Shown here: piece after piece, positions 41,816-61,139 of the stretch | Layout of the letters: every line of letters starts with the position of its first letter | Numbering within the stretch: the stretch's first letter is position 1 | Assembly: GCA_004299085.1 (NCBI GenBank) | Contig: SCQV01000205.1 | Coordinates: 1-62,909 of the forward strand | Direction: 5' to 3' | Source: Chitinophagaceae bacterium | GTDB lineage: Bacteria > Bacteroidota > Bacteroidia > Chitinophagales > Chitinophagaceae | Length of the DNA stretch: 62,909 nucleotides | Translations under genes and position numbers: made by a program | The notes under the pieces: generated by a model | Seen by the model: the letters and a program-made list of their open reading frames with translations, nothing else | The model's database searches: none | Told to the model about the DNA's origin: nothing

Positions 41816-44800
41816 TCATTTCAAAATATTATTCTTGAAAAAATGGTCAAGGGCATCCGCGTCAAGGTACTCGTCATCAAGGGTGTCGTAAATTGCATCT
41901 AAGGCAACGGGAACTTCAGTATCAGTCGCGATTAATTCAAGTACCTTTTCCCTTTCTTTAGAAGAAGAAACAGGTACGCTAAAATTCCAATACTTACCAT
42001 CAATATCCTTTTCTGACCCGCTGATCAACCAAAGACCAATTTTATCTTTGATCTGATTCCATTGACTTTTCAGATCACTTCCTTCCGTTAATAAAACTGA
42101 AGTATTTAGAGCGAGCTTAAGATTAGAAGCCCCCACATTTCTTATAAATTCCATAGCATCTGCTAAATTATAAGGAGGAATGCCAAACCTTACCCGTAGA
42201 TTTAAATGGATATCATATTTTTCTGAAATTTTACAAAGGGAAATAAAAGTCTCTTTAAAAGAATTCCAAGTCTGCTCTTGTGTAAAATTATTTTCAGGGA
42301 AACGGTGTAGTGGTAATATTATTTCTTTTGCCTGAAAAAGGGACATTTTGCTTAATACATCTTCAATCTTAGCCATACTATTTGCATAAGCATCATGGAG
42401 ATTATTAATCAATCGCAACTTTGGGAAAAAATCAACTCCCGAAGTTAAATCAACTATGATTTTTAATTTCTGCCTTTTAATCCATCCGGATTCTTGTTTC
42501 AAGACGGATTCTTCTTTTTGAGCCAGATACTTCCAATCTAAAACTACCCCATCAAAATGCTCAAAGAAAGTTGGTCTGCGCAATATCTCATTTTTTACCA
42601 TTCGGATACTTCTTAGCGGTAAGTAACGATCTCTGGGCCGTTGGGGAGGGATTGCGGACCCGATTTGTACTATATTCTGCTCTTGAACGTAGACTTCGAA
42701 GATACGAATATCACCCCCGGCCATGGTATTTGGACCGCTAATGCCTATTTCTTTTTTATCTATTCCTTCGGGCAAATATCCAATAGCTGTTTTTTCGGAT
42801 TGATCCAACGTTACTTCTTTTATTGATCCAATTTCTCCACAATGAGAAGATATATTAAATGGATACTCATTCCATGAATTATTGGCGATTCCTAGTAGAT
42901 ACTTCCCATCTCCTTTGCAACAGGTAATCAGGCTTAGTGAATCTCCCACATCAAATAATTTTTGATTACTAAATTCTTCATCTAATATGGCATGTACGTG
43001 GTTTAAAATTGGGAAAGGATTGGGCAACGGGTTATCAATTTCACTTTTCATATTTTGGCCGGATGTAATGATATTCATGTTGCTGATACCAAAAGCGCTG
43101 GCTAAAACAGTTACCCTGCCATTACCATATCCTGTTCGTACTGCGAGGGGAGTATTACCAGTTGTCGCCAGAATATCTGCATTTTCGGGGAAAGACAAGG
43201 AATAATAATTAAATGATACTTTTTCCGTGAATTTTTTGTTCCCTACAAAAACGGGGTGGTCTGTTTTTATATTCTTGTTTGCAGAATTGGTTTTTATATT
43301 GCCAAGGCCTTCAGGAAATTTACTTAAATTACCAGATGTAATAATTAGATGACCTCCATTTTTAATATAATTTTGCAGCTTATTATAAATCTCTTTGCCT
43401 CCGGAAAGTTCTCCTGCAATAACTAAGATTGGATACTGAGCCAAAATCCAATCTTCTGCATCACTGAGGACACAATCTGCAATATCGCCATATGGTGTAC
43501 GACAAATAAATCCCGACTCATCATGATAATAAGAAGAATTCTGATAGCCGGGATAAATCATGTTTAATACTGCATCCGTCAGGTAATCACCGGGATCATA
43601 AGGCAAATTTCCCCAGACCCTATATACATCTGAAGAGTATAGATGCCTTGGAAATGTCCAGCCTGCAAAGAAATCCAACATAAGTGCAACCGGAGTGTAC
43701 ATAACTCCTGGCTGGCCATTCTTTTTGACCCATTTTACAGCATTTTGCTGTATATGACCAATTGGGGTGAGTGCATCATTATTGGCCTTTGCCCTGGAAA
43801 AATCTTTGATCTTTTTTTCGTAAAACCACCCTTGGTCAAAACCAACCATCATGGAATTATACAAAATATGGCTATACATTAGTCTTTTCATCAGGCTCAA
43901 ACTTGTTCCCTTGCCAGGCCCATGATCTTCCCCGCTTGAGTTATAAGATTTATATCCCCAGCGATTCCACCCCGATGAATTACCAAACCAAGGAACACCA
44001 TACTGCTTCCCTGCTCCGCGAATAAAGGAGTAATACACTTGTCCATTAGGAAGCGCTTCCCCCGTTTCAGCCCCGATCAAGTTATAAACCCCTTCTTTTA
44101 GAAAATAATGTCCGAAGTTAAGTGAAACAAGAGTCGTTATTTTATTTCTCAGATCATCAGTTAGTTGTTCAAAGTGCTGTTGAAAATTAAAGTATTGATG
44201 AACCCTATTAGCCGATCTGGGATACATTTCAATTGCATAACCACCAATATATCGTCCATCCTGTTCTCCATTATCCATCCCCAGCCAATGATCTCCCAAC
44301 TTTGAACTAAATAACTCAGATAGCTTTGGAGAAAGTTTAAATTGTTCCCATGATCCAAGTCCACTGGTGCCAGGAATATATTTTAATTTTGTTAGTCCGG
44401 ATCCTGGAACATATCCCCATATATCGAATAAAAAAAGTCCTCTGCGTTGGAATTCGTCAATTAAAGCTGGAACATTATCAGCAGATAGGAACCCATGATT
44501 GGGCCAAATCACATTTCCCAGATGAAAAACTTTTGTATAAATATCCAAGTCCTTTGAATAATTTACGATTTTATTACCTTCAATTTGAAAACTTCTTAAT
44601 GTCATGAAATTTGTTTCATTGCTAAATGTATTCCAGTCTGGCGGCTTAACAAATCGGCGTTTATCGTCTGGATACTCACGTGGGTTTAGAAGATGAATGT
44701 TTATGTAATGCTTAGTAGAATTGGCGCTTTCTTGTTTGTTAATTGTAAGTAATTTATCTCCCACAGTGATATTGGGCAATTTGTTTACATATCCAATAGG

Positions 44801-44848
44801 GGCAAGAATGAGCAAATTCTTGATAGCAGTTCTTCTATTTATAGCCAT
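41816..44848 (-). CDS. 1010-aa multidomain protein with a Tat-like signal, an unassigned GH-like N-terminal region, a GATase1/beta-galactosidase-trimerisation-like middle and a C-terminal xylose-isomerase-like TIM barrel
   Basis: The N-terminus MAINRRTAIKNLLILAP is twin-arginine-like. GDHWLGMDNGEQDGRY and IGAETGEALP segments are present. YPILVIAGELSGG...GGHLIITSG is class-I amidotransferase-like. The last roughly 270 aa (KLKIIVDLTSG...HLNLRV...LKLALNTS) resemble the AP_endonuc_2 / sugar-phosphate isomerase TIM fold. Confidence 0.5.
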   Translation of the reverse strand: MAINRRTAIKNLLILAPIGYVNKLPNITVGDKLLTINKQESANSTKHYINIHLLNPREYPDDKRRFVKPPDWNTFSNETNFMTLRSFQIEGNKIVNYSKDLDIYTKVFHLGNVIWPNHGFLSADNVPALIDEFQRRGLFLFDIWGYVPGSGLTKLKYIPGTSGLGSWEQFKLSPKLSELFSSKLGDHWLGMDNGEQDGRYIGGYAIEMYPRSANRVHQYFNFQQHFEQLTDDLRNKITTLVSLNFGHYFLKEGVYNLIGAETGEALPNGQVYYSFIRGAGKQYGVPWFGNSSGWNRWGYKSYNSSGEDHGPGKGTSLSLMKRLMYSHILYNSMMVGFDQGWFYEKKIKDFSRAKANNDALTPIGHIQQNAVKWVKKNGQPGVMYTPVALMLDFFAGWTFPRHLYSSDVYRVWGNLPYDPGDYLTDAVLNMIYPGYQNSSYYHDESGFICRTPYGDIADCVLSDAEDWILAQYPILVIAGELSGGKEIYNKLQNYIKNGGHLIITSGNLSKFPEGLGNIKTNSANKNIKTDHPVFVGNKKFTEKVSFNYYSLSFPENADILATTGNTPLAVRTGYGNGRVTVLASAFGISNMNIITSGQNMKSEIDNPLPNPFPILNHVHAILDEEFSNQKLFDVGDSLSLITCCKGDGKYLLGIANNSWNEYPFNISSHCGEIGSIKEVTLDQSEKTAIGYLPEGIDKKEIGISGPNTMAGGDIRIFEVYVQEQNIVQIGSAIPPQRPRDRYLPLRSIRMVKNEILRRPTFFEHFDGVVLDWKYLAQKEESVLKQESGWIKRQKLKIIVDLTSGVDFFPKLRLINNLHDAYANSMAKIEDVLSKMSLFQAKEIILPLHRFPENNFTQEQTWNSFKETFISLCKISEKYDIHLNLRVRFGIPPYNLADAMEFIRNVGASNLKLALNTSVLLTEGSDLKSQWNQIKDKIGLWLISGSEKDIDGKYWNFSVPVSSSKEREKVLELIATDTEVPVALDAIYDTLDDEYLDADALDHFFKNNILK

Positions 44849-44893: not shown

Positions 44894-45397
44894 TTATAGG
44901 TCAATATTTTCAGGAGAACGATATTTTACTGTTTGCAAATGCTCGCAATATAAAACCAACTCTCCATCATTTTTAAACACTTCATAAGCTGCGCAATATA
45001 GCCCCATGTCTTTATATTTTGGTTGCTTGCTCAAGTCAGTTTTAATAGTATAAATAGTATCACCTATAAAAACAGGCTTGATGAATCGTAGTTTATCATA
45101 GCCATAGCTAAATGCATTCACACAGTTAGTCGCCACCAAACCTAACCCAACACTGAAAACAAATGCCCCGGCCACTAATCTTTTCCCAAATACCCCTTCA
45201 TTCTTTGCAAAAATCTCGTCAGCTACATAAGGGTGCATATCTAAAACGAGAGCATTGAATTGCATACTCTCTCCTTCACTGATAGTACGCCGTATAGAGC
45301 GTATTTTCTTTCCTATTACAATGTCCTCGTAAAACCAGTTTTCGGCATTCCATATAGGAATATCTTTGTGCTTCGTTGGATCAGGGTTCGGATTCAT
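44894..45397 (-). CDS. MaoC-family (hot-dog fold) dehydratase/hydratase
   Basis: 167 aa with the MaoC pattern D...HPYV.DE.FAK...FGKRLV.G. Confidence 0.8.
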
Positions 45398-45406
45398 ATA
45401 AAATAT

Positions 45407-46489
45407 CTATTTGTTACATTGAATGATTAAGTTACTTATTTTTACTGCACCATCATTACTTGATTTATAGGCAGCTTCCACACACGCCATAGTATAAATA
45501 CAGTCCTCTACAGAATTATCGGGTGTATTTACAGGGTCCTCCGCAGCCTTCATCATCTCTCCCATAGAGCCTATAAAGGCATGCGGGAACCAACTTCCTT
45601 CAATTTCCTTTGTTTTCCATTCTGCTTCTTTTCCCTCTTTTATAATGGTATATTCAAATAAGTCTGGAACACCCGTAGGATAATTCATCAATACACCCAT
45701 CTTTATTCTAATCGCCCCTTTTGTTCCTTCAAATTTGATATATGATTGTTGATGATGTAAACCAAATTGATGACAATGATTTGTCAAAATATCAGCTCTC
45801 ACGAGTTCGCCATAATCCATGATAATATTACTTCGTACAGATGCTAAATCCTGCATCATCGGATGCTTTGTTGTTTTAGCGTATATACCGATAGGATTAC
45901 CTAAGAAAGAGCGTATCAAGTCAATATAATGAATGCTATGATAAGGTATTTCTACACGTGGCGCCTCGAAAAGGAAACTCCATAAATTCCATGGCGTAAA
46001 GACATTAACATTCACTTCTATATCGCAAAGCTCTCCAATGTTTCCCTTTTCTATCATTTCTCTTGCCATTGTAATAAAAGGTGCATATCTCAGTTGGAAA
46101 TTAACCCCTGCAATCATCTTCTTATCTCGTGTTATTTGAAGGATTTGTTTTGCCTGCTCATAATTTTCTCCCATCGGTTTTTGCATCAACACTATGGCAT
46201 GACCAGGCAACTTCTGTAATAAACATGTAAGCACATTTCCGGGTACTGCTAAATCAAACACTACCTTGGATGGAGCATCCTCCAGCAACTGATTTATGCT
46301 TTCATATACCTTGGGCACAGCATATTTTTCTGCGGTAGCCTTTGCCTTTTCAATATTGATATCGTAAATACCAATTACATTAAAATTAGCCAGCCTGTAA
46401 GCCGGTAGGTGAGCATCATTAACTATTCCCCCCGCGCCTATAATTATTATAGGTGCTGTATTTTTAGGTATTGAAGAATGAGGTTTCAT
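45407..46489 (-). CDS. Gfo/Idh/MocA-family oxidoreductase
   Basis: N-terminal Rossmann IIIIGAGGIVNDAHLPAY and the EKP-like MQKPM motif. Confidence 0.85.
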   Translation of the reverse strand: MKPHSSIPKNTAPIIIIGAGGIVNDAHLPAYRLANFNVIGIYDINIEKAKATAEKYAVPKVYESINQLLEDAPSKVVFDLAVPGNVLTCLLQKLPGHAIVLMQKPMGENYEQAKQILQITRDKKMIAGVNFQLRYAPFITMAREMIEKGNIGELCDIEVNVNVFTPWNLWSFLFEAPRVEIPYHSIHYIDLIRSFLGNPIGIYAKTTKHPMMQDLASVRSNIIMDYGELVRADILTNHCHQFGLHHQQSYIKFEGTKGAIRIKMGVLMNYPTGVPDLFEYTIIKEGKEAEWKTKEIEGSWFPHAFIGSMGEMMKAAEDPVNTPDNSVEDCIYTMACVEAAYKSSNDGAVKISNLIIQCNK

Positions 46490-46529: not shown

Positions 46530-47585
46530 TTATGCCCCAGTCAGTGCACCAACATAATTGCCGTATGTTAAAAAGAGTACTGACAATATTAATACCGTTA
46601 TCGCAAGAGCTAGCGACCATTTTGTCCGTATTTTTACACCTTTCCATTCTTTTAATATTAATCCTATTACACTACTAAAAAGTACCAACATAATCATATG
46701 AATCGCCCAACTGCTAAATTCGTATGGGCCCATTCTTGTATTACCCATTCCATAGAAAAAGAATTGTGAATACCATAACAGACCGGTTATAAATGCCAAT
46801 ACATAATTGAATGGTAATATGGTTCTATTCTTGACTTTTTTCAATGTTTTATATTCTCCAAAAGTCTTTTGTTTGAGATGTAAATAGATACAGTAAATAG
46901 CCGTTGTGAGGAAAGCGCCAGTATTAGTAAAAATATAGATAACATTCCCTTGAAACTGGCCGGCGCCATATTTTGCAGCTACGTCTGCAATAGGCTGTCC
47001 CTGAGCCAAAGCAATTCCGTATACCGCAGAGAGTATTCCTGCTAATAAGCATAGAGGCAATCCTTTCCTAAGTGAAAACAAAGAAGACGAATTTTCTTTT
47101 ATTTGCAGATCTTTCTCCTTAAATCGACCTGCGAAGCCACAGATAGCAATACCCAATGCCCCGATAGCGATGCCCATCATCAGCCAACCTGATCCCGCTT
47201 TAGTCAATATCTTTTCTAATTGTCCGTTCACTAATGGTGGAATTATAGTGCCTAATACACAGGATAGCCCTACAGATATAGCGTATGTTAAGGAGAATCC
47301 TACATATTTGATAGCCAGCCCGAAGGCTGTACCTCCGATGCCATAAGCTGCACCGAGTATAAAAGCCTCATACATGGCATCCACGGGTGCTTCTTTCAAT
47401 ACTTCTCCTAAATGAGGTATGGTAATCCATGCCCCGATAATCGGTAATAGGAACCAGCAGAACACAGCCTGAGCCAGCCAGTACGTCTGCCAGGACCACG
47501 CCTGGGTTTTTTCCTGCGGAGTGTAACACACTGAAGCACTTCCGGCACCAACAGCATGAAATGAGACACCAGTTATAACACTCAT
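46530..47585 (-). CDS. rhaT: RhaT-family sugar:H+ symporter (L-rhamnose/proton symporter-like)
   Basis: 10-TM DMT-type protein. The N-terminus G..FH..GA.S...Y.P..K...WSW.T.W and the C-terminus W...M...VL...IGL.LKEW align with E. coli RhaT as recalled. Confidence 0.8.
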   Translation of the reverse strand: MSVITGVSFHAVGAGSASVCYTPQEKTQAWSWQTYWLAQAVFCWFLLPIIGAWITIPHLGEVLKEAPVDAMYEAFILGAAYGIGGTAFGLAIKYVGFSLTYAISVGLSCVLGTIIPPLVNGQLEKILTKAGSGWLMMGIAIGALGIAICGFAGRFKEKDLQIKENSSSLFSLRKGLPLCLLAGILSAVYGIALAQGQPIADVAAKYGAGQFQGNVIYIFTNTGAFLTTAIYCIYLHLKQKTFGEYKTLKKVKNRTILPFNYVLAFITGLLWYSQFFFYGMGNTRMGPYEFSSWAIHMIMLVLFSSVIGLILKEWKGVKIRTKWSLALAITVLILSVLFLTYGNYVGALTGA

Positions 47586-48448
47586 GATAAATTTGACAGG
47601 TTATAAAATGAATCTGCATTTTTATAAAGAACCTTTTCCTGTTCTTCCATAGCCAATTCTTCTGCTACAATTTCTTGGTAAGCCAACCAGGCTTTTTCAT
47701 AAGGTCCAGCCAACAATGCTATCGGCCAATCACCTCCACAAAAACAGCGGCTTGTTCCAAATACCTCAATCGCGTACATTAGGTAGGGTTTCAGATCGTC
47801 TTTTGCCCATCTGTCTCCGTCGGATGCACTTGATCCCAAGCCTGATATCTTAGCATACACATTATCGTGTAATGAAATCTCTTTCATCAATTCTCCCCAT
47901 CGGCCAAATCTCTCTTTAGAGGCTATAGGTGGCTGATTTAAATGATCCAGAACAATTCTCAATGCAGGCAATCTTTCTGCCACCTGTATAGCTGTCTCTA
48001 AGTGTGCGGTATTAATTCCTACCACATCATAAGGGATCTTATAAGAAGCTAAAATATTCAAGCTTGCCATAACGCTGTCTTGTAAAAGCCATTGAGGGCT
48101 TGCTTCATTATGAATAAGATGACGACAACCTTTAAAATAGAGATTATCCAGATACTTCTCATTGAGTGCTTTTACGGTCGCTTCTGGATCTATTAAAGGC
48201 AGCCAACCTACCACTCCTTTTATCCAATCAGTTTTAGATGCAGTTGTCAGCATAATATCCGTATCATCAAAGTTATTAGCAGCTTGTACCAATATACCCT
48301 GTGTAACATTAGCTTTAGAGATAAGAGGGCTTAACTGTTCGATGGAATAGGTTTTATTTAGAATACTGGTATCATTTTTCAACCAGGAGTATTCTGCCTT
48401 TTCCAAATTCCAGACATGAATATGAGTATCAATAATACCTTTTATCAT
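47582..48448 (-). CDS. Amidohydrolase_2-family protein (sugar-lactonase / LigI-like class)
   Basis: IIDTHIHVW metal/active-site start and DHL...P. Size is about 288 aa. It overlaps rhaT by 4 nt. Confidence 0.75.
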   Translation of the reverse strand: MIKGIIDTHIHVWNLEKAEYSWLKNDTSILNKTYSIEQLSPLISKANVTQGILVQAANNFDDTDIMLTTASKTDWIKGVVGWLPLIDPEATVKALNEKYLDNLYFKGCRHLIHNEASPQWLLQDSVMASLNILASYKIPYDVVGINTAHLETAIQVAERLPALRIVLDHLNQPPIASKERFGRWGELMKEISLHDNVYAKISGLGSSASDGDRWAKDDLKPYLMYAIEVFGTSRCFCGGDWPIALLAGPYEKAWLAYQEIVAEELAMEEQEKVLYKNADSFYNLSNLS

Positions 48449-48472: not shown

Positions 48473-49612
48473 TTATAAATCAAATTCTCTCTTTATTGAT
48501 TCCGTATGCTCGCCTAATCTGGGTGCTCCCATGGGGGATTTCAATATTTGTCCGTCCACCCTTATGGGACATCGAGTTGTTTTCAAAAATTGATTCCCTA
48601 TAGAAACTTCCTGCTCCATTTCCAGTACTTTATATCCATCTTCTTGTACCAGCGCATCATAGTTTAATACCTCTGCACACCAAATATCAGCCGGCCCTAA
48701 TATGTCAAGCCATTCCGTAACTGATTTATTATTCAAATAATCCTGTAAGATCGTTTTGATTTTATCTCTCTTATTGAACCAGTCTGTTGAATCAGTAAAG
48801 GAGAGCAATGCATCACAGCCTAATAATTTTCCAAGCTGAGGGATATTTCCCATGGATAATGCCAGGTAACCGCTATTGGTTTTATAAATACCATAAGGTG
48901 CTGCAATATAAGCATGCCCGTTATTTATGCAGCTTCGACGGGGCAACATATTACCGTCGTTATAAAAGCATGTTAAGACCTCAAACTGAAAATCCAGCAG
49001 GCTTTCTAACATGCTTACTTCTATCAGGGCGCCCTTTCCCGAAGTAAGACGTTCATAAATAGCAGTCAATATACCTTGGACGAGATGTGTTCCAGCTAAT
49101 ATATCTGCGACTGCAACACCCATTGGGGTTGGATTATCCTGATCATTACCACTCAACCACGTAATGCCAGAAACGGCCTGAAGTAATAAATCCTGCCCAG
49201 GCTTGTCTTTCCATTCTCCTTCATCCCCATAGCCATTGACATACGCATAAATTAATCGGGGATTAAGTTCTTTTACTGATTCATAAGAAAGTCCAATCCG
49301 CTCCATAACCCCTGGGCGAAAATTGTGTATCAGGATATCTGCGTGTTTTATCAGCTTTCTAACCGCATTCAAATCATTGGCATTTTTCAGGTCTGCCTGA
49401 AAGCTTTCTTTATTTCTATTGATAGCATGAAAAATAGTGGACTCTCCTTTCACCATTGTATCACTTACGTATAATTCCCGGCAAATATCGCCGGTGACCG
49501 GACGTTCAATCTTAATAACCCTCGCGCCCATGTCTGCAAGTCTCAAACTTGCAGAAGGGGCCGATAAAAACTGGCTAAAATCTAGCACTAATATATCTTC
49601 CAAAAGTTTCAT
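48473..49612 (-). CDS. Family III (CaiB/BaiF) CoA-transferase
   Basis: ILVLDFSQFLSAPSASLRLADMGARVIKIERP...GD is the hallmark N-terminus. An Asp-containing GQDLL segment is present. Confidence 0.85.
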   Translation of the reverse strand: MKLLEDILVLDFSQFLSAPSASLRLADMGARVIKIERPVTGDICRELYVSDTMVKGESTIFHAINRNKESFQADLKNANDLNAVRKLIKHADILIHNFRPGVMERIGLSYESVKELNPRLIYAYVNGYGDEGEWKDKPGQDLLLQAVSGITWLSGNDQDNPTPMGVAVADILAGTHLVQGILTAIYERLTSGKGALIEVSMLESLLDFQFEVLTCFYNDGNMLPRRSCINNGHAYIAAPYGIYKTNSGYLALSMGNIPQLGKLLGCDALLSFTDSTDWFNKRDKIKTILQDYLNNKSVTEWLDILGPADIWCAEVLNYDALVQEDGYKVLEMEQEVSIGNQFLKTTRCPIRVDGQILKSPMGAPRLGEHTESIKREFDL

Positions 49613-49617
49613 TTTCT

Positions 49618-50754
49618 CTATTTTACTATCTCTCTTTTAAATTCGTCTATATGTTCTCCTAATTTGGGCGCAGGTTTGTCAGATAAAAAATACTGCTTAT
49701 TGTAACGGATGGGACAACGGGTTGTCTTTATCTTTTTATTGCCTGCTAAAAATTCCTGCTCAATATTCAATGCTCGATATGTTGAGGATTGTATTAATTG
49801 ATTCCAGTCCGAAACAGGCATAATCCACAAATCGTGTTTTTGAACCTTTTTCAGCCATCCTGCCGTGGTATCGGTTAGAAGAAAATTAGATAGAATCGCC
49901 TTGATTTCATCCCTTTTTTTAAAAGATTCTTCCTCGGTAAATTTATTCAATTCTATACATTCAATTGCTGCATTCAGTTTCTTCAGTGGCATCATTGCTA
50001 TGGCGATATAACCGTCTGACGTTTTATAAATGCCATAAGGGGCACCTAGTAAAGGGTGTCCATTGCTAATCTCTGACCTTTTAGGTTGCTTCTTGCTTTG
50101 GAAATAAGTCGTGAAATATTCAAACTGAAAATCTATTAAAGATTCCAATAGGCTTAATTCCAGCAATGCGCCTTTCCCAGTTTTATGACGCCTAATGAGT
50201 GCAGCGAGGATCGCCTGTACAGTTTGGTTGCCACATAAATAATCACTCATCGCAAGTCCGAATGGTATTGGGTGATCCTTTGCATTTCCTGTAGTATAGG
50301 TTAGACCCGATATGGATTGTATTAATAAATCCTGCCCAGGCTTGTGGCTCCATGGCCCCTTTTTTCCGTAACCGGATATTTCTGCATAAATAATGCGCGG
50401 GTTTATTTTTTGTACGGAGGCATAATCCAATCCAAAAGACGCCATTATCCCAGGACGGAAATTATGGGTTATTACATCAGCGTGGACAATCAATTGTCTT
50501 ACAAACCTCAAATCATCGGGATCTTTCAAATTGGCCGTAATGCTTTTCTTATTCCTATTGATCGTATGAAATAAAAGCGAGCTATCATCTACCCATAAAT
50601 TTTCTATAGATAGTCTGCGTCCTGCATCTCCTCCTTTGGGACGCTCCACCTTGATAACTTCAGCTCCAAAATCTGCAAGGCGTAATCCAGCACAAGGACC
50701 AGATAAATATTGGCTAAATTCTAAAATTACTATTCCTTTTAATGGCAATTCCAT
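49618..50754 (-). CDS. Family III (CaiB/BaiF) CoA-transferase, a paralog of the previous gene
   Basis: IVILEFSQYLSGPCAGLRLADFGAEVIKVERP...GD. It is separated from its paralog by 5 nt. Confidence 0.85.
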   Translation of the reverse strand: MELPLKGIVILEFSQYLSGPCAGLRLADFGAEVIKVERPKGGDAGRRLSIENLWVDDSSLLFHTINRNKKSITANLKDPDDLRFVRQLIVHADVITHNFRPGIMASFGLDYASVQKINPRIIYAEISGYGKKGPWSHKPGQDLLIQSISGLTYTTGNAKDHPIPFGLAMSDYLCGNQTVQAILAALIRRHKTGKGALLELSLLESLIDFQFEYFTTYFQSKKQPKRSEISNGHPLLGAPYGIYKTSDGYIAIAMMPLKKLNAAIECIELNKFTEEESFKKRDEIKAILSNFLLTDTTAGWLKKVQKHDLWIMPVSDWNQLIQSSTYRALNIEQEFLAGNKKIKTTRCPIRYNKQYFLSDKPAPKLGEHIDEFKREIVK

Positions 50755-50771
50755 ACAGTTATTTTTATCTC

Positions 50772-51920
50772 CTATTTTCTTCTGCTACTCCTATATAATT
50801 CATTCATATTCCTTAATAGTTGTTCAGCATTTCCTGTCTCAAGCAAATGTTCCTGTAATAAAGTACCGGCTCGATCTTGGAAGGAAAGATAACCGTTATA
50901 CCGTGGTCTCATAAATGCTCTGTCTATAGTGGGTAAGGTGTTCATGAAAAAATTATTGCAATAGTAATTTGCTGTTTCACTTTCCCATGCAGCACGATGC
51001 CCCGGTTGTCCCCCGTTTTCTACGTACAAAGTAGATTGGATATCTGGAGAAGCGACCCATGATGCAAATCGGATAGACCAGGTTTTGTTCTGTGTAAACG
51101 AGGATAAAGATAGTCCTGTTCCCCCTAATGTGCTGCACAGCCGCTTGCCTTCCTTAAATTGTACGACATCAGTGTAAGTCAGTAAATGGGGCGCATATCC
51201 TTTTCGTGAATAGTTTGAATATCCATAAGAAAAAGGACAATACCAATAGTCATCTGTAGATGACATTAACTCTGCTATTGTAATAGGATTATAGGTAAAC
51301 ATCCTTTTATTGACTATGCTCCAAAGTTCCTTCATGGTATCAATAGCCTTAATGCCTGTTTCATCATCTATCATCTTTTCCTCGTCTGCGAAAGGCATAT
51401 TTCCATGAGCTGTGCAGAACATATAAAAATTCATCAGCAGGTCAATGGGTATAGAGGGTACGGCTAGCTTACCTCTTTTAGCTAAATTTATTACTTCCTG
51501 CCATGTATCTGGAACAGGGGCATTATTCTTCTCAAGTAAATCTGAACGATAACTGGCCACAGGAGTAGCTGCATCAATTGCCAATGCCCATTGGTGCCCT
51601 TCATAATAATAACTCTGGTGCGAAGGTCCAACAGAGCTTTTCATTTGATCTGATAAATATTCTTCAGATAATAAATTATCTAAAGGCACTATGCACCCTG
51701 TAGCTGCTGCGCAGCCTACCCAAGGGTGATCAATGATTAGCAAGTCATATAGTTGAGTTAGTTTTTCAATAGGATAATCCGCAAACTCCTGGAGTGTACG
51801 TTTTGTCCATATTATTTCCACTTCGGGGTGCAATTCAGAAAACCTTTGTGAAGTAGCCAACAATGGTGTAATACCCCGGCTATGCCCCCAGGTTATTCCT
51901 TTCAAAATAACCTTACTCAT
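50772..51920 (-). CDS. Periplasmic-binding-protein (solute-binding, family 1-like) fold protein without a signal peptide
   Basis: 382 aa starting [16 protein letters not shown], with no hydrophobic leader or lipobox. The ...[10 protein letters not shown]...[11 protein letters not shown]... pattern resembles SBP_bac_1-type proteins. No ABC permease or ATPase gene occurs anywhere in the window. Confidence 0.55.
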
Positions 51921-52356
51921 GTTTTGACTTTTTCTCTACTAACAATAGATGTTCACATACCATTACCAGTTTATCATGCTGATTAAATGTTTCTATCAAC
52001 TCTCTAACTATGCCATAGCCAGGCTTTTTATGATCTTTTTTATCTTTGATGGTAATAGTTACCTTGATAGTATCCCCAATAAATACCGGCTGCAAGAACC
52101 GCAGCCTTTCATATCCATAGGTCATACTCACTTCGTTAATACTATTCGCCGTCATTCCTACGGCTATACTAAAAATTAGCGTACCATGAGCTATCCTCTG
52201 TTTGAACGGCTGTTTTTTACACCATTCCGCATCCACATGATGTGGGAAAAAGTCACCGGTTTGGCCAGCATGGATTATAATATCAGTTTCGGTAATGGTA
52301 CGACCATGAGATTTACGAACGTTCCCAATAATATATTGTTCAAAATATGTTTCCAT
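51913..52356 (-). CDS. MaoC-family (hot-dog fold) dehydratase/hydratase
   Basis: 147 aa with [12 protein letters not shown]...RIAHG. It overlaps the next gene by 8 nt. Confidence 0.8.
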
Positions 52357-52395: not shown

Positions 52396-54921
52396 CTATG
52401 GCCTTAAATATATTATTTCACCAGGATAGGTTTTAATACTTATGATTTTTTCAGTCATTTTTCTCTTTTCATTATTAGTAATTAAATAGCCTTCATTACC
52501 CCATGGCATAATAAGCCTTAGTATGTTCCCTTTTTCACTTTTAATCTTTATTTCCTTCACGTTTCCATCTTTTAAACTGGCACTTACCAAAAAAGCACCG
52601 GCTGTTCTTAAGTCATAAAAGGAAGCGTTTTTATTTTTAGGCCAATTGGGAAATAAACGAATAATCCCGTCATAGCTCTGGATTAGACATTCATTGATCA
52701 CAACCGGGAGCGCAAAATTTTCGAACCATATACCCATGTGGGCCATAAAATCAAAGGTAGTAAGATCACTATATCTGCCTCCTGATTGCATTACCATGTC
52801 AGTTGCCGTGCCATCTGGCAATAAACAATATTTTATTTGCCGTTTGAACTTATATAGATTTAACATTCCAATTCGCGCCGCTTGCAGATTTCTAAATACA
52901 AGATCATTTCCGCCTTCGTTTTGAGAATTTTTATACGTATTCTTTAACATCTGAAGAGTAGTCAGATCCGAACCCAGACCATAATCATCTCCTGGGAAGA
53001 CCGGAGTTAAAGGTAGTGGTACATTATAAATGACGTTTGCATTTGCTCCTGGTGCTCCCACCAGAACTTTTCCGTATTTCTCTGATTGAGCAGTAGGATA
53101 TTTAGGATAGTGGTCCAGTATATCCCGAATATTATTTAATAAATATTTCTCCTTCTCTTGAGTGCCTAATACTCTTGTAGCCTCCTGAAAGGCTTTGAAA
53201 ATAAATTTAGTAAGAGCCAAATCAATAATACAATCATAGTCGTACTTAAAACCGGGCTGTAATCCATAAAGCTCAGGAGGAATAGTAGGGAATATATGAA
53301 AATCATTATCACCCCATCTTGGCAACCCGCTTGCAACATGCCGCTTCATATAAGCCACTAAGAAAGTAACCGCTTCCTTTATCGGAACATAAGCACGATT
53401 CTTAAGAAAATTAGTATCTCCTGAATATAAATAGTGCAACCACAACTCTTGTACGGCCCAAGGTGTTTCACAAATCTCCCAACCCCAGGTAGGAACAGGA
53501 TAAGGGTTCATAGTCATCTTAACAGGATAGGAAGAGTGAGGAAAATAAGCACCGGGAAGATTATAATATTCTCTTGCCCATTCCTTACTTGAACCCAATA
53601 GGAAATTTATTAAATTTACATACGGTAAGTCTTTTTCCAAGTGATTACTTGAAAACGTCATCCAAAAGGGTTGTTCAATATTGTAATTCATATGATAATC
53701 TCCGTGCCAGGCAGTGCCAATTTTGTCATAGCTCCAATTTGCAAAGAGCCCCGGGCATGTTGCTTCTGCTTTTGCTGCGCAATTAAAAAAATAAAGGTTG
53801 TGGTACCAAACACCCTCAAGAAATGAATCACTAAGGACAACTCCTGATTTGTTCCAATAATCTTTCCAGGTATTTATATTACTATCCAATTTCAAGGTTA
53901 AGTCTTGCATCTTAGGCGTAATTATTGATATTGCCTTAGTGGGTACGGTAGAATCTGCCCCATATTCGAGAGACACCGTACCAATGAATTTGTCTACTTG
54001 TGATAGAGCCGATTCCAGAGGGCTCATTTTTATTTTATCCCCGTACAAGTCCATCCGCATTTTGGATGTTTGTATCTTATCGTTTATTGGCAGGTTAACA
54101 GTGACGCTCAAACGAAAGGCACGATCTTTGGGATCTCCCTTCCCCATATTATACTCTTTCGGTTCCTCGGCTGGCAGGGTTTGTCTAAAAGAAAGTGTTC
54201 CTCTTTTTAAATTTTCATTGACGCTATATCTGGGAAATTCTTTTGGGGTAGATGGATCTGGAATGATTTTTATTCTATTGAAGATATTAGTATGCAGGCT
54301 TCCGTCAGGATTAACCAGCCACATCCATAGCTTATCTTTTTTTAAATCAACAAATATTTTTAAGAAAACTTTATTTTTTTGAGCTGTTCTCATTTCAATT
54401 GTACAAACCCCGGTAGCAATGTCCAGTTTATATCCTACCATATCAACGCTTCGTCTATCAAAACCCAATAATACGGAGCCGCATGGGAATGGCCTCGGAT
54501 AAGGCTTATTATAGTTTTCTCCTGCCATTTTAACATAATTAGAAAACCAGGTGTCTTCCGATAAAGAAGAAAATGTATCAGGAATTGCCTTGACCTTATT
54601 GAACACATAGTTAAAAGTGCCTATTTCTTTACGATGGTTTTCTGCAATTCGAATATCCCAAACGTTATTATCTCCAAAGCGAAGCACTATAGCATCTGGA
54701 CGCGTGGTAACTACAACTCCCATAGCACCATTACCAAGTAAAGCCCCCTCAAAAAAGTTGGGTGCTGGACCATTAAAAGTTATTGGGAAAAGTTTTGCCT
54801 GATTAAAGGAGGAAAAGTTTTGGTCAATTTGTGCACTTACACAAGTTACCAAAAAGACTGTAAAAGTCAATATCCCCCAAATTGTCTTTTTTATCATTTT
54901 AATAAATAACATGACGAACAC
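52396..54921 (-). CDS. Secreted GH95-like (alpha-L-fucosidase/galactosidase-type six-hairpin) glycoside hydrolase, divergent
   Basis: Signal peptide (likely start ATG 54897). N-terminal ALLGNGAMGVVV resembles the GNG..G motif of the GH95 N-domain. WHGDYHMNYNIEQPFW resembles the W..dyt.N.N.qm.YW segment. The assignment is tentative. Confidence 0.45.
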   Translation of the reverse strand: MFVMLFIKMIKKTIWGILTFTVFLVTCVSAQIDQNFSSFNQAKLFPITFNGPAPNFFEGALLGNGAMGVVVTTRPDAIVLRFGDNNVWDIRIAENHRKEIGTFNYVFNKVKAIPDTFSSLSEDTWFSNYVKMAGENYNKPYPRPFPCGSVLLGFDRRSVDMVGYKLDIATGVCTIEMRTAQKNKVFLKIFVDLKKDKLWMWLVNPDGSLHTNIFNRIKIIPDPSTPKEFPRYSVNENLKRGTLSFRQTLPAEEPKEYNMGKGDPKDRAFRLSVTVNLPINDKIQTSKMRMDLYGDKIKMSPLESALSQVDKFIGTVSLEYGADSTVPTKAISIITPKMQDLTLKLDSNINTWKDYWNKSGVVLSDSFLEGVWYHNLYFFNCAAKAEATCPGLFANWSYDKIGTAWHGDYHMNYNIEQPFWMTFSSNHLEKDLPYVNLINFLLGSSKEWAREYYNLPGAYFPHSSYPVKMTMNPYPVPTWGWEICETPWAVQELWLHYLYSGDTNFLKNRAYVPIKEAVTFLVAYMKRHVASGLPRWGDNDFHIFPTIPPELYGLQPGFKYDYDCIIDLALTKFIFKAFQEATRVLGTQEKEKYLLNNIRDILDHYPKYPTAQSEKYGKVLVGAPGANANVIYNVPLPLTPVFPGDDYGLGSDLTTLQMLKNTYKNSQNEGGNDLVFRNLQAARIGMLNLYKFKRQIKYCLLPDGTATDMVMQSGGRYSDLTTFDFMAHMGIWFENFALPVVINECLIQSYDGIIRLFPNWPKNKNASFYDLRTAGAFLVSASLKDGNVKEIKIKSEKGNILRLIMPWGNEGYLITNNEKRKMTEKIISIKTYPGEIIYLRP

Positions 54922-55122: not shown

Positions 55123-56640
55123 TTAATAGCCATGGTTCTGTACCAACTTAGGATTAGCGTCTATTTCGCTCTGTGAGAAAGGAAACAAATAATTTTTATT
55201 AGGATCAAATTGGCGATGAGTTCCACCTGGGTCCACTAATGTAGGTATATAAGTTTGGGCTATTTTCCAACGTTTAATATCTAAATATCTATCCCCTTCA
55301 AGGCCTAATTCAACCCTCCTTTCCTCCCTAATTGCCTCTCTCATTTGTCCTTGGTTTAATCCTTGTGGCAGTGGTGGCATATTAACACTTGGTCTAGCAC
55401 GTACCATATTGATAGCTGCATAAACTGAGGCATCTGGGCCGACTGCTTCGTTTTCGGCTTCCGCATACATTAACAAGACTCCAGCATATCTTAGTAAGAC
55501 CCAATCCTGGTCACTTTTAGTTGAATAATCATACGGGTAGGCATCTAAATTTACTCCTTTTAACGCTTCATAACCTGTCACAGAAGAGCTACCGCCGCTG
55601 CCATTGAGGTAAACCGAGTCTCCTGCAGAATTAACAAGAGCTTGACTAACTCTAGCCACTGTATATGCAAGCCTTGGATCCCGATTCTTGAAAGGATGAT
55701 TAGGATCATAAAGTGGTGAGGTGGAGATCGGTTGACCGTCTGTACATTCAAAGGCGTTGACAAACTCTTGTCTCGGATTAATCAGTCCCCACCATCCGAT
55801 CTCTATATCTTGATCCGAATAGTAATTGGGATTAAGAAATTTACTTGAGAAAATAATTTCAGGATTATTTATTTGTTCTGATTTTAAAAATAGGCTTTGA
55901 TAATTGTCACAAAGATGAAAGACTCCACTCTGAATGATTTCATTTGCCACTTCAGCAGCTTTTGAGTATTGTTCATTATATAATAAGACTTTAGCCTTAA
56001 GAGCCAAGGCGGAACCTTTCACTGCATAACCGGAATATTGGGTATTAGGAAGATTGGCAATTGCAAAGTCAAGATCTTTATATATTTGTGTGTCAACCTC
56101 AGCCACTGTACTTTGCTTTATCCTAGCCTCTTCAACCGTGACCGGTGCCGTATATAATGGTACTCCTCCGTAGAAATTAGTAAGAGTGAAATAAGATAGC
56201 GCTCTTAAAAATCGAACTTGTGCTTCATACTGGGTTTTTGTTTCGTCACTAATGGGTGTCCTTCCGATATTTGCTAGGAAAAAGTTACACGAACTAATCC
56301 CATTATAGCAATCATCATAAATACTTGAAACAAGGCCTCCTGAGGTTGGTGTAATAACTCCTGCAGCAAGCGTTTGCAAAGAACTTGACCCTTGACTCTG
56401 CTGAGAATAGTCTGCATCACCCCCCAAGATGGACCACATCATTTGTTGGTAATCAAATGTAGAACTGGTAAGTCGATTATATACGCCGGCAAGGGCCATA
56501 TCCGCGTCTTGTTGAGTCTGCCAGAATGTTTGACTAGATAATTGATCTAGTGGTTCTTTATTTAAGAATTTACTACATGAAGTCAGAATTAACACCATGA
56601 CTCCAACCGAAAAAATCTTAATACCTATATCCTTTATCAT
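55123..56640 (-). CDS. RagB/SusD-family outer-membrane lipoprotein
   Basis: Lipobox LTSC and TPR-like SusD patterns (FLRALSYFTLTNFYGGVPL; C-terminal ...NPKLVQNHGY). Confidence 0.9.
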   Translation of the reverse strand: MIKDIGIKIFSVGVMVLILTSCSKFLNKEPLDQLSSQTFWQTQQDADMALAGVYNRLTSSTFDYQQMMWSILGGDADYSQQSQGSSSLQTLAAGVITPTSGGLVSSIYDDCYNGISSCNFFLANIGRTPISDETKTQYEAQVRFLRALSYFTLTNFYGGVPLYTAPVTVEEARIKQSTVAEVDTQIYKDLDFAIANLPNTQYSGYAVKGSALALKAKVLLYNEQYSKAAEVANEIIQSGVFHLCDNYQSLFLKSEQINNPEIIFSSKFLNPNYYSDQDIEIGWWGLINPRQEFVNAFECTDGQPISTSPLYDPNHPFKNRDPRLAYTVARVSQALVNSAGDSVYLNGSGGSSSVTGYEALKGVNLDAYPYDYSTKSDQDWVLLRYAGVLLMYAEAENEAVGPDASVYAAINMVRARPSVNMPPLPQGLNQGQMREAIREERRVELGLEGDRYLDIKRWKIAQTYIPTLVDPGGTHRQFDPNKNYLFPFSQSEIDANPKLVQNHGY

Positions 56641-56668: not shown

Positions 56669-59600
56669 TTAAAGAGTAAGCCTAACTCCGAAAGTATATG
56701 TTTTAATTTGAGGGTAGGCGCTATATCTTCCACCCTGCGTACTCCTTTCAGGATCGGATCCAGGATATTTTGTAACAGTCAAAATATTGTTCCCGGAAAT
56801 ATATATACTTGTAGGTCCAAACCCAATCTTTTTAATTATGTTTCCAGGTAAATTATAGCTAATGATAAGATTCTTTAATCTGAGATAAGACGCATTTTTA
56901 AGCCAATATGTCGATTGAACACCCGACACCGGAGGATAGCCAGTTATGTACATAGCTGGATATTCATTGGTATGATGAGTTGGTGTCCACATATTTTTAA
57001 CGAAATTAATCGTTGGAGGGGAACCTTGTACATAAGGTGAAAATCCCCACCCTCCTCCATTAAAATAGAAATATTGCCCTTGAACACCTTGGAAAAAGGC
57101 ACTTATATCAAGCCCCTTCCACCCAAGACTAAGGGTGCCACCATAATAGAATTTAGGATAAGCTCCTGGGACTACCACTCTATCTTTAGAATCGACAACC
57201 CCGTCTCCGTTAATATCAGCAAATTTTAAGTCGCCGGGTTGCGGCGTATATTGCTGGGTGGGCGATTTATTAATTTCTTCTTGACTTTGAAAAATGCCAA
57301 TCCACTTAATTAAATAGAAAGAATTGAAGGGAATTCCTGCTTTAGTGATAGTAGAACTACCAATCGAAGGCGCAACAACCTGGAGAACTTTATTTTTATT
57401 CGTAGAAAAGTTTACACTCACTCCGTAATGAAACTGACCGATCGTGTTCTGGTGAGAAACTTCAAACTCCCACCCTCTATTTCTCATTTTACCGTAGTTT
57501 ATTGTGGGAGCACTTAAACCGACACTAGCCGGAATAGGAGCCTGGTATAGAATCCCACTTGTCAATTTATTATACCAATCAAATGTAGCCGTTAAAAGCC
57601 CATCAAGAATATCTACATCTACACCAAAATCTGTCATAGTTGTTGTTTCCCATTTTAATGATTTATCCACTAACCGAGTTAATTGAACCCCTGGATCCAA
57701 ATTATTAAAAGGGTATGAAGTGATAGATAGTATATCCTGATATGGATATAAACCAACATTTTGATTTCCTAGCTGTCCCCAAGATCCCCTAATTTTTAAA
57801 TTGCTTAACCAATTTAGATTCTTCATAAAAGACTCTTCTGATATTCGCCAGCCGGCTGAAACAGAAGGGAATAGACCCCATCTGCCTTGGGGTGCAATCC
57901 TAGAAGTCCCGTCATACCTCATGTTGGCCTCAAAGAGGTATTTCCCTTTAAAATCATAATTTACGCGACCAAAATATGACAAGAGTGACCAAGCGTTAGC
58001 TGTTCCACTTGTAGTTTGTCCATCTGTTGAACCCGCATTTATCTCATTTAAGTTATCCGAAGGGAAAGATGTTCTGTGTGCCCCCAATTGCCGAAAGAAA
58101 TTAGACTCAAGATCATATCCTAATAAAACACTGAGATGATGTTCGCTTTTAAAAGTATTATCATAGTGAAGGGTTGAAAAAAGAGACGTAAGAGTGTTCT
58201 CCGTAGAATTATCAGTAACTCCCTCATGTACTGGAAAATTATTATCAGCATAACTGCTGTCTTTAAAGTAATATGTATCTTCAGGGTGCTCACGTAATTT
58301 ATTAAAGGTATTCCCATAAGTAAATGCTCCTTTTGTGTACCAATTGAGATGCTTATTAAATCTTATATCCACGTAAACTTGAGGGACAAAAGTGTAATCC
58401 TGTGTTTTATTAAAGCCAACAGCGTCGGCTTCGAAGGGGTTTCTAGCAGTATATTCTCCGATTTCGCTGCTGTACCTTGCCACATATACTGTTTGACCAT
58501 CTGCCAGCTTCATTGTTGGAGTATAGTTCGGTGCTTGGGCAAAAACACCTAGTAAATAATCGCCATTACTAGAATTGATATAGCTCTCTGTAATATCCTG
58601 TCTATTCATATTTACCTCACCTCCAATAGTAATCCACTTTTTAACCTGTGAATTTATGGAGAAATGTAAATTATATTTTTGAAATGAATAGATACTGATT
58701 ATACCACCTTGATTCAAATAACCTAAATCTAGTCTGAAATTTGTCTTCTTATCTCCCCCACTTACACCTAAGTGATGATTTTGTGCAAAACCAGTATGAA
58801 ACATAAATTTCTCCCAATTAAAATTGGGATAGTGAACAGGGTCATTGGGATGATCTTTAAATGCATCAATATCTTCCTGAGAAAAATAAGGCTGTAATCC
58901 CTCTCTAATCCTTCCTTCGTTCCAGTATTCCATATATTCTGCCGAATTATATAATAATTTCGGCAATCTGGTCGCACGTTGGAATTGTATATTCCCATCA
59001 TACTCAATGGTAAGAGGCCCTGGCTTTCCTGTCTTTGTCGTAACTAAAATAACCCCGTTTGCGCCTCTTGAACCATAAATAGCACTGGCGGCTGCATCTT
59101 TTAAAATAGAAATAGATTCAATGCTATTAGGGTCTAATGTTGACATATCCCCTGGAACTCCATCAATGAGCACTAAAGGGGTGCTACCTGCAGAACTGAA
59201 CGTTCCCAACCCACGAATCTGTATATTATTACCGGGGTCTCCGGGCTTACCATAAGATTGGGCAATCTTTAGTCCCGCAACTTGCCCTTCCAATAAATCG
59301 ACCGGATCACTGACTGGGCTCTTAATTAATTCCCGGCCACTTACGCTAGTTACCGACCCAGTCAAATCAACCTTTTTCTTAGTTCCATATCCAATAACTA
59401 TAAGGCTATTCAAATCATTTGCACTTTCCTGTAGTGTTACATTAATTAGCCTCTGTCCATTCACTGGGACAGCCACTGTTTTATAAGAAAGGAAGCTAAA
59501 AATCAGTGTAGCATTTTTAGACGCTTTTATAGAAAAGTGCCCACTATTATCGCTAATAGTTCCATTTGAAGTCCCCTTAACCATCACGGTTACCCCGGGT

Positions 59601-59716: not shown

Positions 59717-59755
59717 AGTTGTAAAGTTTAAAATGCATAATAAAGAATCTAACGT

Positions 59756-59763
59756 CAAAATTA
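59756..59763 (-). promoter_or_regulatory. Candidate Bacteroidota -7 promoter box (TAnnTTTG) for the susC-like operon
   Basis: The minus strand reads TAATTTTG about 40 nt upstream of ATG 59716. No clear -33 TTTG was seen at ideal spacing. Confidence 0.3.
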
Positions 59764-61114: not shown

Positions 61115-61139
61115 TTTCTTTCACAATTGAGAAGGAGAA

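Follow-up and report, generated by a model that had tools for sequence, protein, structure and literature searches.

A signal-less MalE-fold protein encoded with family-III CoA-transferases and an enoyl-CoA hydratase: a possible CoA-cycling module in a Bacteroidota polysaccharide-utilisation locus

Positions 1 to 62,909 of contig SCQV01000205.1 from a Chitinophagaceae bacterium (assembly GCA_004299085.1), referred to here as the window, contain a gene (50772..51920, minus strand) for a 382-residue protein that resembles the periplasmic binding proteins (PBPs) serving as substrate-binding proteins (SBPs) of ATP-binding cassette (ABC) transporters. We propose, giving equal weight to the chance that we are mistaken, that this SBP-like protein is a cytoplasmic, non-transport descendant of the MalE type that acts with one or two family-III coenzyme A (CoA) transferases and an enoyl-CoA hydratase in a CoA-cycling module comparable to CaiB/CaiD. 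The gene stands in a head-to-tail array of four genes, all on the minus strand, which encode in order of transcription MaoC1, a hot-dog (R)-specific enoyl-CoA hydratase of 147 residues (51913..52356; PF01575, 90.2 bits, Asp/His motif intact), the SBP-like protein, and the family-III CoA-transferases CaiB_a (378 residues; 49618..50754; PF02515, 330.7 bits) and CaiB_b (379 residues; 48473..49612; PF02515, 312.1 bits). This arrangement is confirmed as it was described in an earlier reading of the DNA (the original prediction): the MaoC1 stop and the SBP-like start share an 8-nt overlap (ATGAGTAA), a gap of 17 nt separates the SBP-like and CaiB_a genes, and 5 nt separate the two CaiB genes. The description of the genes thus stands, whereas the 3.9-kb frame in which they had been viewed was too narrow, since they are the core of a seven-gene module inside a polysaccharide-utilisation locus (PUL) operon of approximately 19 kb.

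Fold, conservation and cellular location of the SBP-like protein

The predicted structure agrees with the PBP-like character originally ascribed to the protein. An AlphaFold2 model computed with 30 homologues reaches a predicted local distance difference test (pLDDT) value of 92.9 and a predicted template modelling (pTM) score of 0.91, and the 50 best matches to it in a Foldseek search of the PDB are all ABC-transporter binding proteins. Nearly all of these bind carbohydrates (MalE3, TMBP, SmoF and others; TM scores 0.82–0.87, 12–18% identity), and the model fits the ligand-bound forms of SBPs slightly better than the apo forms. As modelled, the fold is unambiguously of the MalE type, that is, a type II PBP with an inter-lobe cleft. 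The Pfam score is marginal (PF01547, SBP_bac_1, 28.1 bits against a cutoff of 26), there is no NCBIfam match, and databases annotate the protein as an ABC transporter substrate-binding protein. A profile alignment to Escherichia coli maltose-binding protein (MBP) made with hhalign has a probability of 97%; it pairs R15 with K15, H65/P66/W67 with H64/D65/R66, D160 with E153, F230 with W230 and F347/Q348 with W340/Y341, and it places D116 near E111. Conserved residues of the SBP-like protein therefore fall at or beside what we take to be the canonical maltose-contact positions of MBP, which argues that the cleft has been retained and is under strong constraint. The Trp, Tyr, Asp, Arg and Gln residues of this cleft, together with two Gly-rich loops, suggest that it is of a sugar- or anion-binding type.

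The family is a large one. A phmmer search against 1.84 billion representatives, clustered at 50% identity, returned 1741 clusters at E ≤ 1e-3 and 527 at E ≤ 1e-30. Identity is 58–69% across orders of Bacteroidota, equal to or above that of the neighbouring enzymes, and 40–55% to homologues from Chloroflexota, Acidobacteriota, Firmicutes and Vibrio. Among 49 sequences that share 31–53% identity, 15 residues are invariant (W11, R15, D59, D116, P229, Y234, G266, G267, G269, Q295, G304, Q305, P306, W312 and P339), and these include the two Gly-rich loops, GGxG and GGQP. Judged from such alignments, the conservation of the protein is that of an enzyme. One homologous locus (L089, 224–1705) holds a single open reading frame (ORF) in which an XRE-type helix-turn-helix (HTH) domain (HTH_31), a linker of about 45 residues and a full SBP-like domain follow one another, with an Amidohydro_2 gene next to it; an internal Met at the usual SBP-like start leaves two readings of this ORF, a genuine fusion or a gene call that is too long.

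In the window, the SBP-like ORF is already maximal, because its start codon is the first to follow the upstream stop, and a signal peptide cannot be gained from an earlier start; the absence of a signal peptide or lipobox, as claimed in the original prediction, is thereby borne out. Only 10 residues precede the conserved strand-1 Trp, and in the alignment the N-terminus falls on the first strand of the mature MBP of E. coli. Homologues were surveyed at 222 distinct loci, drawn from the best 80 found with the window protein (the related loci) and from two further scans with family alignments; a locus search with a single distant member (P0160) added nothing new. At most 12 codons are possible before the conserved TW.H.RG motif in 165 of the 222 loci, and the longer possible extensions in the remainder are high-GC read-through and not signal peptides. 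The motif lies within the first ~20 residues in 250 of 270 collected family proteins, and only three or four of the 270 bear real N-terminal extensions. One of these rare relatives, P0128, has an extension resembling a twin-arginine translocation (TAT) signal; the gene contexts of P0128 and of P0129, another extended member, were uninformative. By these N-terminal comparisons, the family is almost entirely signal-less. An internal control is provided by loci L166, L085 and L178, in which genuine SBPs encoded beside permeases do bear signal peptides or a lipobox.

The original prediction also held that the window has no ABC permease or ATPase gene and that a transport role is unlikely. Scans for Walker A plus LSGGQ motifs and for EAA motifs found no ABC ATPase or permease in the 62.9-kb window, and phmmer searches with reference ABC_tran, BPD_transp_1 and BPD_transp_2 proteins gave no match there. 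The 1.4 Mb of Bacteroidota-type flanks contain one ABC-ATPase-like ORF and no EAA permease. Neighbour counts were restricted to loci with 3 kb or more of flanking DNA on each side (103 close and 64 distant loci), in which six-frame ORFs were classified by phmmer against reference proteins of Pfam-fixed family. BPD_transp_1 permeases occur within 5 kb of the SBP-like gene in 1 of the 103 close and 13 of the 64 distant loci, and 9 of these 13 also encode a separate genuine SBP. When distance is controlled for, permease density is not raised near the SBP-like gene: BPD_transp_1 is found at 1.2 per 100 kb within 5 kb versus 2.3 in the shell between 5 and 10 kb, and ABC_tran at 1.3 versus 1.7. Homologues are thus not regularly encoded beside ABC permeases, no alternative start supplies a signal peptide, and the predicted fold is that of a PBP, all of which supports the original suggestion that an SBP fold was recruited to a cytoplasmic, non-transport role.

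Association with CoA-transferases and hydratases across genomes

A CaiB gene lies within 5 kb of the SBP-like gene in 95 of the 103 close and 52 of the 64 distant loci, and CaiB together with a hydratase in 91 and 38, respectively. CaiB density is 15.6 per 100 kb within 5 kb versus 1.5 in the 5–10 kb shell, a difference of ~10-fold. The original prediction had raised the question of whether such signal-less proteins always neighbour CaiB genes; adjacency is usual, but it is not invariable, as ~8% of loci carry an MR_MLE, UxuA or GD_AH dehydratase in place of CaiB. Either CaiB or an acid-sugar dehydratase of one of these three families is present within 5 kb in 99 of the close and 61 of the distant loci.

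The order MaoC1-SBP-CaiBa-CaiBb is far from a chance arrangement. It recurs in most of the 80 related loci, as does its continuation into genes for a lactonase, a RhaT symporter and a Gfo/Idh/MocA oxidoreductase (GFO), and a permuted order, CaiBa-CaiBb-MaoC2-MaoC1-SBP-lactonase-RhaT-GFO, is also seen, preceded by SusD and GH95-like genes. The seven genes of Catalinimonas have only unrelated housekeeping genes around them, which indicates that they form a self-contained module. The first further scan extended the family to Paenibacillus, Vibrio and Acidobacteriota, and the second to Chloroflexota, Actinomycetota, Planctomycetota, Verrucomicrobiota, Alphaproteobacteria, Dormibacterota and Clostridium. 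The second scan also gave metagenome-assembled genomes labelled Nitrososphaerota. Modules of Bacteroidota or Chloroflexota type were found on contigs labelled Acinetobacter pittii, Bosea thiooxidans, Asaia bogorensis and Nitrososphaerota (L069, L137, L156, L171 and L174); these are probably mis-binned contigs and not real occurrences in the labelled taxa.

Outside the Bacteroidota the partners of the SBP-like gene vary. In Paenibacillus, the run SBP-like, CaiB, CaiB, MaoC2, MaoC1 leads on to GntR, a GD_AH dehydratase and an RraA-like aldolase, with a complete separate ABC system upstream. Vibrio has SBP-like, CaiB, CaiB, crotonase and GntR, flanked by a tripartite ATP-independent periplasmic (TRAP) transporter and an aldehyde dehydrogenase. 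The Chloroflexota loci L085 and L178 (558–12476) comprise an ABC transporter that has an SBP of its own, then DUF4432, CaiB, a protein of the metallo-beta-lactamase fold, a crotonase, SBP-like, an RraA-like aldolase and GH38, to which L085 adds a short-chain dehydrogenase/reductase (SDR); DUF4432 is a recurrent uncharacterised member of this module variant. Actinomycetota show the order CaiB, SBP-like, MaoC, MR_MLE, in some cases RraA, and Amidohydro_2, and in Microbacterium (L245/L247) a GH95-like gene lies directly upstream of the CaiB-SBP-MaoC module. RraA-like genes recur beside SBP-like and CaiB genes in Paenibacillus, Chloroflexota and Actinomycetota alike. In a minority of loci (for example Sediminibacterium L121 and metagenomic L088), an MR_MLE gene is directly upstream of the SBP-like gene and CaiB is absent. 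L121 (5283–14868) has a 60%-identical SBP-like gene with neither CaiB nor MaoC, in the order aldo-keto reductase (AKR), MR_MLE, SBP-like, SSF transporter, PhyH dioxygenase, UxuA-like, RraA-like and MFS, and it is suggested that L056, L124 and L143 share this arrangement. Across these loci we find extensive non-orthologous displacement: the hydratase is MaoC or a crotonase, the dehydrogenase GFO, SDR or AKR, the lactonase Amidohydro_2 or a metallo-beta-lactamase, the glycosidase GH95-like or GH38, and the transporter RhaT, TRAP or ABC. As the partners are exchanged for unrelated analogues while CaiB and the SBP-like protein stay, these two appear to form a functional unit in sugar or sugar-acid catabolism.

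The two CoA-transferases of the window are 49% identical over 373 residues (E 1e-136) and are therefore true paralogues, as the original prediction had it for this pair. Each covers 365–366 of the 366 positions of the PF02515 profile, and each scores below every NCBIfam equivalog cutoff. The catalytic Asp, which we take to be the equivalent of Frc Asp169, is present in CaiB_a (AMSDY) and in CaiB_b (AVADI) and is kept in 294 of 295 CaiB proteins encoded beside SBP-like genes. The a-then-b order is preserved in 103 of 108 close loci with two CaiB genes. Most of the distant loci have a single CaiB, and this resembles CaiB_b, which points to CaiB_a as the derived paralogue. Heteromeric or tandem family-III CoA-transferases are represented by SmtAB (succinyl-CoA:malate), BbsEF (benzylsuccinate), phthalate CoA-transferase and DddD, in which two CaiB domains are fused; the present pair may likewise form an SmtAB-like heteromer. 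In MaoC1, the motif GDFFPHHV supplies the Asp-x4-His signature, and GD[FYW][FY]PHH is kept in 145 of 146 orthologues. A second hot-dog protein of the operon, MaoC2 (44894..45397, minus strand; Pfam; 35% identical to MaoC1), has Val at the position of the catalytic His (LDMHPYVA), a feature conserved in 20 of 20 orthologues, and it is the most conserved protein of the cluster, with 85–89% identity between loci. These features suggest that MaoC2 is a non-catalytic partner subunit of MaoC1, presumably in the manner of HadA.

The surrounding polysaccharide-utilisation operon

The operon is transcribed from the minus strand in the order SusC, SusD, GH95-like, MaoC1, SBP-like, CaiB_a, CaiB_b, lactonase, RhaT, GFO, MaoC2, a 1010-residue protein and an RraA-like aldolase, and it is tightly packed, with intergenic gaps of -8 to 45 nt except for 201 nt after SusD. 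Its first genes encode a SusC-like TonB-dependent receptor of 1029 residues (56669..59758; Pfam Plug and CarboxypepD_reg), a SusD-like lipoprotein of 505 residues (55123..56640; Pfam SusD_RagB and SusD-like_3) and a divergent GH95-like glycoside hydrolase of 841 residues (52396..54921; Pfam GH95 catalytic domain, 99.7 bits, with GH65N_2 and GH95_C). An AraC-family regulator (cupin plus HTH_18 by Pfam; 60239..61114, plus strand) is divergent from the operon, and an AraC homologue also adjoins the module in the related loci L004/L094, L096 and L110. Adjoining SusC and SusD genes, a glycoside hydrolase and this regulator identify the locus as a Bacteroidota PUL. Downstream of CaiB_b lie the genes for an Amidohydrolase_2 (cog3618) sugar-lactonase-like protein (47582..48448; Pfam, 134.6 bits) and, overlapping it by 4 nt, a RhaT-family sugar/proton symporter (46530..47585; Pfam RhaT, 175.9 bits; NCBIfam RhaT, 308 bits, which is below its cutoff). 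These are followed by a Gfo/Idh/MocA NAD(P)-dependent oxidoreductase (45407..46489; Pfam), presumed to be a sugar 1-dehydrogenase, then by MaoC2 and the 1010-residue protein, and the last gene encodes an RraA-like (HMG/CHA-type) class II aldolase (41135..41809; Pfam, 100 bits), all on the minus strand.

Dehydrogenase, cog3618-like lactonase and RraA-like aldolase are thus present in the operon, and no enolase-superfamily, IlvD/Edd, UxuA or UxaA dehydratase was found in the window. To judge from its gene content, the cytoplasmic part of the PUL looks like an oxidative sugar pathway that has no recognisable sugar-acid dehydratase. As for the sugar itself, the GH95-like enzyme bears a signal peptide or lipobox (ending FLVTC), and comes nearest, among solved proteins, to alpha-L-fucosidases, with the best PDB match reaching only E 1e-15 over ~200 residues; it may represent a new GH95 subfamily or specificity. 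The lactonase-like protein has its best NCBIfam match in L-fucono-1,5-lactonase (146.7 bits, below the cutoff of 400) and its best PDB match in 4dlf (E 4e-23), which is deposited as 'Amidohydrolase 2' and which we take to be the L-fucono-1,5-lactonase BmulJ_04915. The solved relatives of the GFO protein are only remote, and neither it nor the GH95-like protein is close enough to solved enzymes to fix the sugar. The MR_MLE neighbours found in other loci do not name the substrate either, since no characterised close relative of them was found. A substrate of dicarboxylic or branched type, such as aceric acid, was also considered, since dicarboxylate transferases give the CaiB proteins their highest scores and since there are known RraA-like aldolases for HMG/CHA; the idea was dropped, as nothing was found to test it.

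Two further features of the window may be recorded. The 1010-residue protein (41816..44848, minus strand) is lineage-specific and has weak Pfam matches only; its N-terminus contains RR (MAINRRTAIKNLL…), its C-terminal part weakly matches a xylose-isomerase-like TIM barrel, and it has no counterpart in the 80 related loci. A 90-residue ORF fragment at 61121–61393 (minus strand), 41% identical to residues 100–173 of the SBP-like protein, looks from its sequence like the remnant of a second, divergent member of the family, and it has the AraC gene on one side and, on the other, a truncated ISAzo13-type DDE transposase ORF (61970–62584, plus strand).

A proposed pathway, its rivals and known systems

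We hypothesize the following route. The SusC/SusD pair and the periplasmic GH95-like enzyme would capture a glycan and liberate from it a sugar, probably one of L-galacto configuration or a deoxy sugar, which would be imported by RhaT, oxidised to the lactone by the Gfo/Idh/MocA enzyme and opened to the aldonate by the cog3618 lactonase. The CaiBa/CaiBb pair would convert the aldonate to its CoA thioester, from which MaoC1, possibly paired with the His-less MaoC2, would eliminate water; CoA would then pass to the next aldonate as in CaiB/CaiD, and the 2-keto-3-deoxy acid so freed would be cleaved to pyruvate and an aldehyde by the RraA-like aldolase. The cleft of the SBP-like protein would most likely bind the sugar acid or its labile CoA ester, and the protein would serve the CoA-transferase as a specificity, gating or hand-over subunit. 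As no dehydratase is found among the operon steps, the CoA-transferase, hydratase and SBP-like triad may replace a metal- or Fe-S-dependent aldonate dehydratase. A thioester lowers the pKa of the alpha-proton, and we infer from this that simple hot-dog or crotonase enzymes could stand in for metal or Fe-S dehydratases. A more specific form of the proposal makes the SBP-like protein an obligatory subunit of a three-component CoA-dependent aldonate dehydratase, formed with the CoA-transferase III and the hydratase, in which it would capture or shield the labile polyhydroxyacyl-CoA; this we regard as tentative and, on balance, doubtful.

Several observations weigh against a CoA-cycling role of the SBP-like protein. 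The operon encodes no CaiC-like AMP-binding ligase for priming, and 2-oxoacyl- and polyhydroxyacyl-CoA esters should be labile, which makes the proposed intermediates chemically awkward. Many Actinomycetota loci carry MR_MLE dehydratases besides CaiB-SBP-MaoC, so that the triad may perform a step other than aldonate dehydration, and in 14 of the 64 distant loci CaiB and SBP-like occur with no hydratase within 5 kb. A Rosetta-stone search of 249 loci revealed no fusion of the SBP-like protein with CaiB, MaoC, enoyl-CoA hydratases of the ECH type or dehydratases. The substrate sugar is weakly indicated, given the GH95-like match at E 1e-15 and the lactonase score below the equivalog cutoff. The locus sample was shaped by two peptide patterns and by the restriction to the best 80 loci, and the close loci are phylogenetically related. 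Finally, no aldonyl-CoA chemistry was found in the searchable literature, and the searchable full texts, including GapMind and SAR202 papers, contain no description of the module, although absence there is no proof.

The reading implied by the database name, that the protein is an ordinary transport SBP, either exported or serving an unlinked ABC or other transporter, with a coincidental neighbourhood, has in its favour the Pfam SBP_bac_1/SBP_bac_8 match, the permeases near 13 of the distant loci, and the rare N-terminally extended relatives such as P0128. It is nonetheless most improbable and is already largely refuted: the gene in the window and most of its homologues leave no room for a signal peptide, genuine signal-bearing SBPs adjoin such permeases as these loci contain, permease density is no higher close to the gene, Bacteroidota-type loci are essentially devoid of ABC genes, and transport is supplied by RhaT, TRAP, SSF or separate complete ABC systems. 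PBP folds can also act as sensors, as in AmiC/AmiR and NasS/NasT, and the conserved cleft, together with the HTH_31 domain joined to an SBP-like domain in L089, would fit a ligand sensor of the cytoplasm whose contacts with other proteins regulate the operon or an enzyme. We consider this very unlikely, because the L089 ORF is a single case from a metagenome assembly with an internal Met exactly at the usual start, because the neighbouring regulators vary (AraC, GntR, IclR, DeoR and two-component systems) whereas CaiB is the constant neighbour, and because the gene lies in mid-operon, translationally coupled to enzymes.

That the protein has itself become an enzyme deserves more attention, since binding-protein folds have given rise to cyclohexadienyl dehydratase (PheC), MqnA/MqnD, Thi5 and DszB. 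With the sugar acid or its CoA ester as substrate, it could be a dehydratase, lyase, enol-keto tautomerase, thioesterase or lactone-thiolysis enzyme, while CaiB and the hydratase catalyse adjacent steps. Its enzyme-like conservation within Bacteroidota and across phyla, the invariant R15, D59, D116, Y234, Q295 and Q305 with the GGxG and GGQP loops, the stand-alone seven-gene module, which offers no other candidate for a C-C cleavage or release step, and the pairing with MR_MLE or UxuA where CaiB is missing all agree with catalysis. The invariant Trp, Tyr, Asp, Arg and Gln residues, however, suit a sugar- or anion-binding cleft, with no obvious catalytic Lys and no metal triad among them, the top structural matches are all pure binding proteins, and no reaction of the pathway logically requires such an enzyme; we therefore think this rather unlikely. 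A separate question is whether the CaiB pair represents two homodimeric enzymes with different jobs and not an SmtAB-like heteromer, one loading CoA from succinyl- or acetyl-CoA and the other unloading the product, or one of them being an MCR-like epimerase. The catalytic Asp in both proteins and the sufficiency of a single CaiB_b-like protein in most of the distant loci are consistent with separate enzymes, whereas the a-then-b tandem with its 5-nt spacer, maintained in nearly all close loci, and the existence of SmtAB, BbsEF and DddD are more in keeping with a joint one; separate enzymes are a serious possibility towards which we lean slightly less than half the way.

If the SBP-like protein works with CoA-transferases and hydratases in the cytoplasm, thousands of genes annotated as sugar ABC-transporter binding proteins would be mis-assigned, even in Bacteroidota loci that are essentially without ABC importer genes, and the few binding-protein folds known to have taken on tasks in the cytoplasm would gain a MalE-type example. 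Such a role would also fill a pathway gap in soil and aquatic Bacteroidota, Chloroflexota and Actinomycetota that have oxidative sugar operons with no recognisable dehydratase. The module suggests a CoA-dependent dehydration or processing of sugar acids, nothing like which appears in the searchable literature. Should the three-component dehydratase prove real, it would offer an alternative, independent of metals and Fe-S clusters, to all known classes of sugar-acid dehydratase, in a system spread over eight or more bacterial phyla and annotated everywhere as 'ABC transporter substrate-binding protein'. The components are small, soluble and cheap to assay in vitro.

The precedent for the proposed cycle is the carnitine dehydratase of E. 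coli and Proteus, in which CaiB and CaiD cycle CoA between product and substrate (PMC2131755). As there, the genes pair a family-III CoA-transferase with an enoyl-CoA hydratase, and the net outcome would be the (de)hydration of a free hydroxy acid through transient CoA esters. The substrate here is presumably a sugar acid and not a betaine, the hydratase is a MaoC protein of the hot-dog fold, with crotonases only in some relatives, and the module has an additional constant SBP-fold partner; it has neither a CaiC ligase nor a CaiA reductase, the operon encoding no acyl-CoA dehydrogenase of the CaiA type.

With MalE-type SBPs of the CUT1 group, such as Thermotoga maritima MalE3 (6dtq), Thermococcus litoralis TMBP (1eu8) and Agrobacterium tumefaciens SmoF, the SBP-like protein shares the two-lobe type II PBP fold, and its conserved residues sit where E. 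coli MBP has the residues of its maltose-binding cleft. Unlike the CUT1 proteins, it has no signal peptide, lipobox, cognate permease or ATPase, shows enzyme-like conservation, is encoded inside catabolic operons beside CoA-transferases, and is related to them at the low identity and marginal Pfam score given above. As it fails on both export and transporter linkage, it should not be filed as a transport SBP. In having a PBP fold inside the cell with no transporter, it resembles PheC, MqnA/MqnD, Thi5, DszB, AmiC and NasS, but those proteins derive from other SBP classes; we know of no cytoplasmic recruit of the MalE/CUT1 type, and of none tied to CoA-transferases.

The CaiB pair, in turn, is like SmtAB, BbsEF, phthalate CoA-transferase and DddD in consisting of two adjoining paralogous CaiB units, both with the catalytic Asp. 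It differs from the heteromeric family-III systems in that distant relatives of the module use one CaiB. At the level of the pathway, the closest likeness is to the oxidative L-fucose route, which proceeds through a dehydrogenase, the cog3618 L-fucono-1,5-lactonase and the MR_MLE L-fuconate dehydratase FucD to an aldolase or to a dehydrogenase and hydrolase. The operon resembles this route in that a sugar transporter, a presumed NAD(P)-dependent sugar dehydrogenase, a homologue of cog3618 lactonases and a terminal aldolase are encoded together, here behind a glycosidase gene. In the present operon, however, the aldolase is RraA-like and not of the HpcH or DHDPS type, and the position of the dehydratase is occupied by CaiBa/b, MaoC1/2 and the SBP-like protein.

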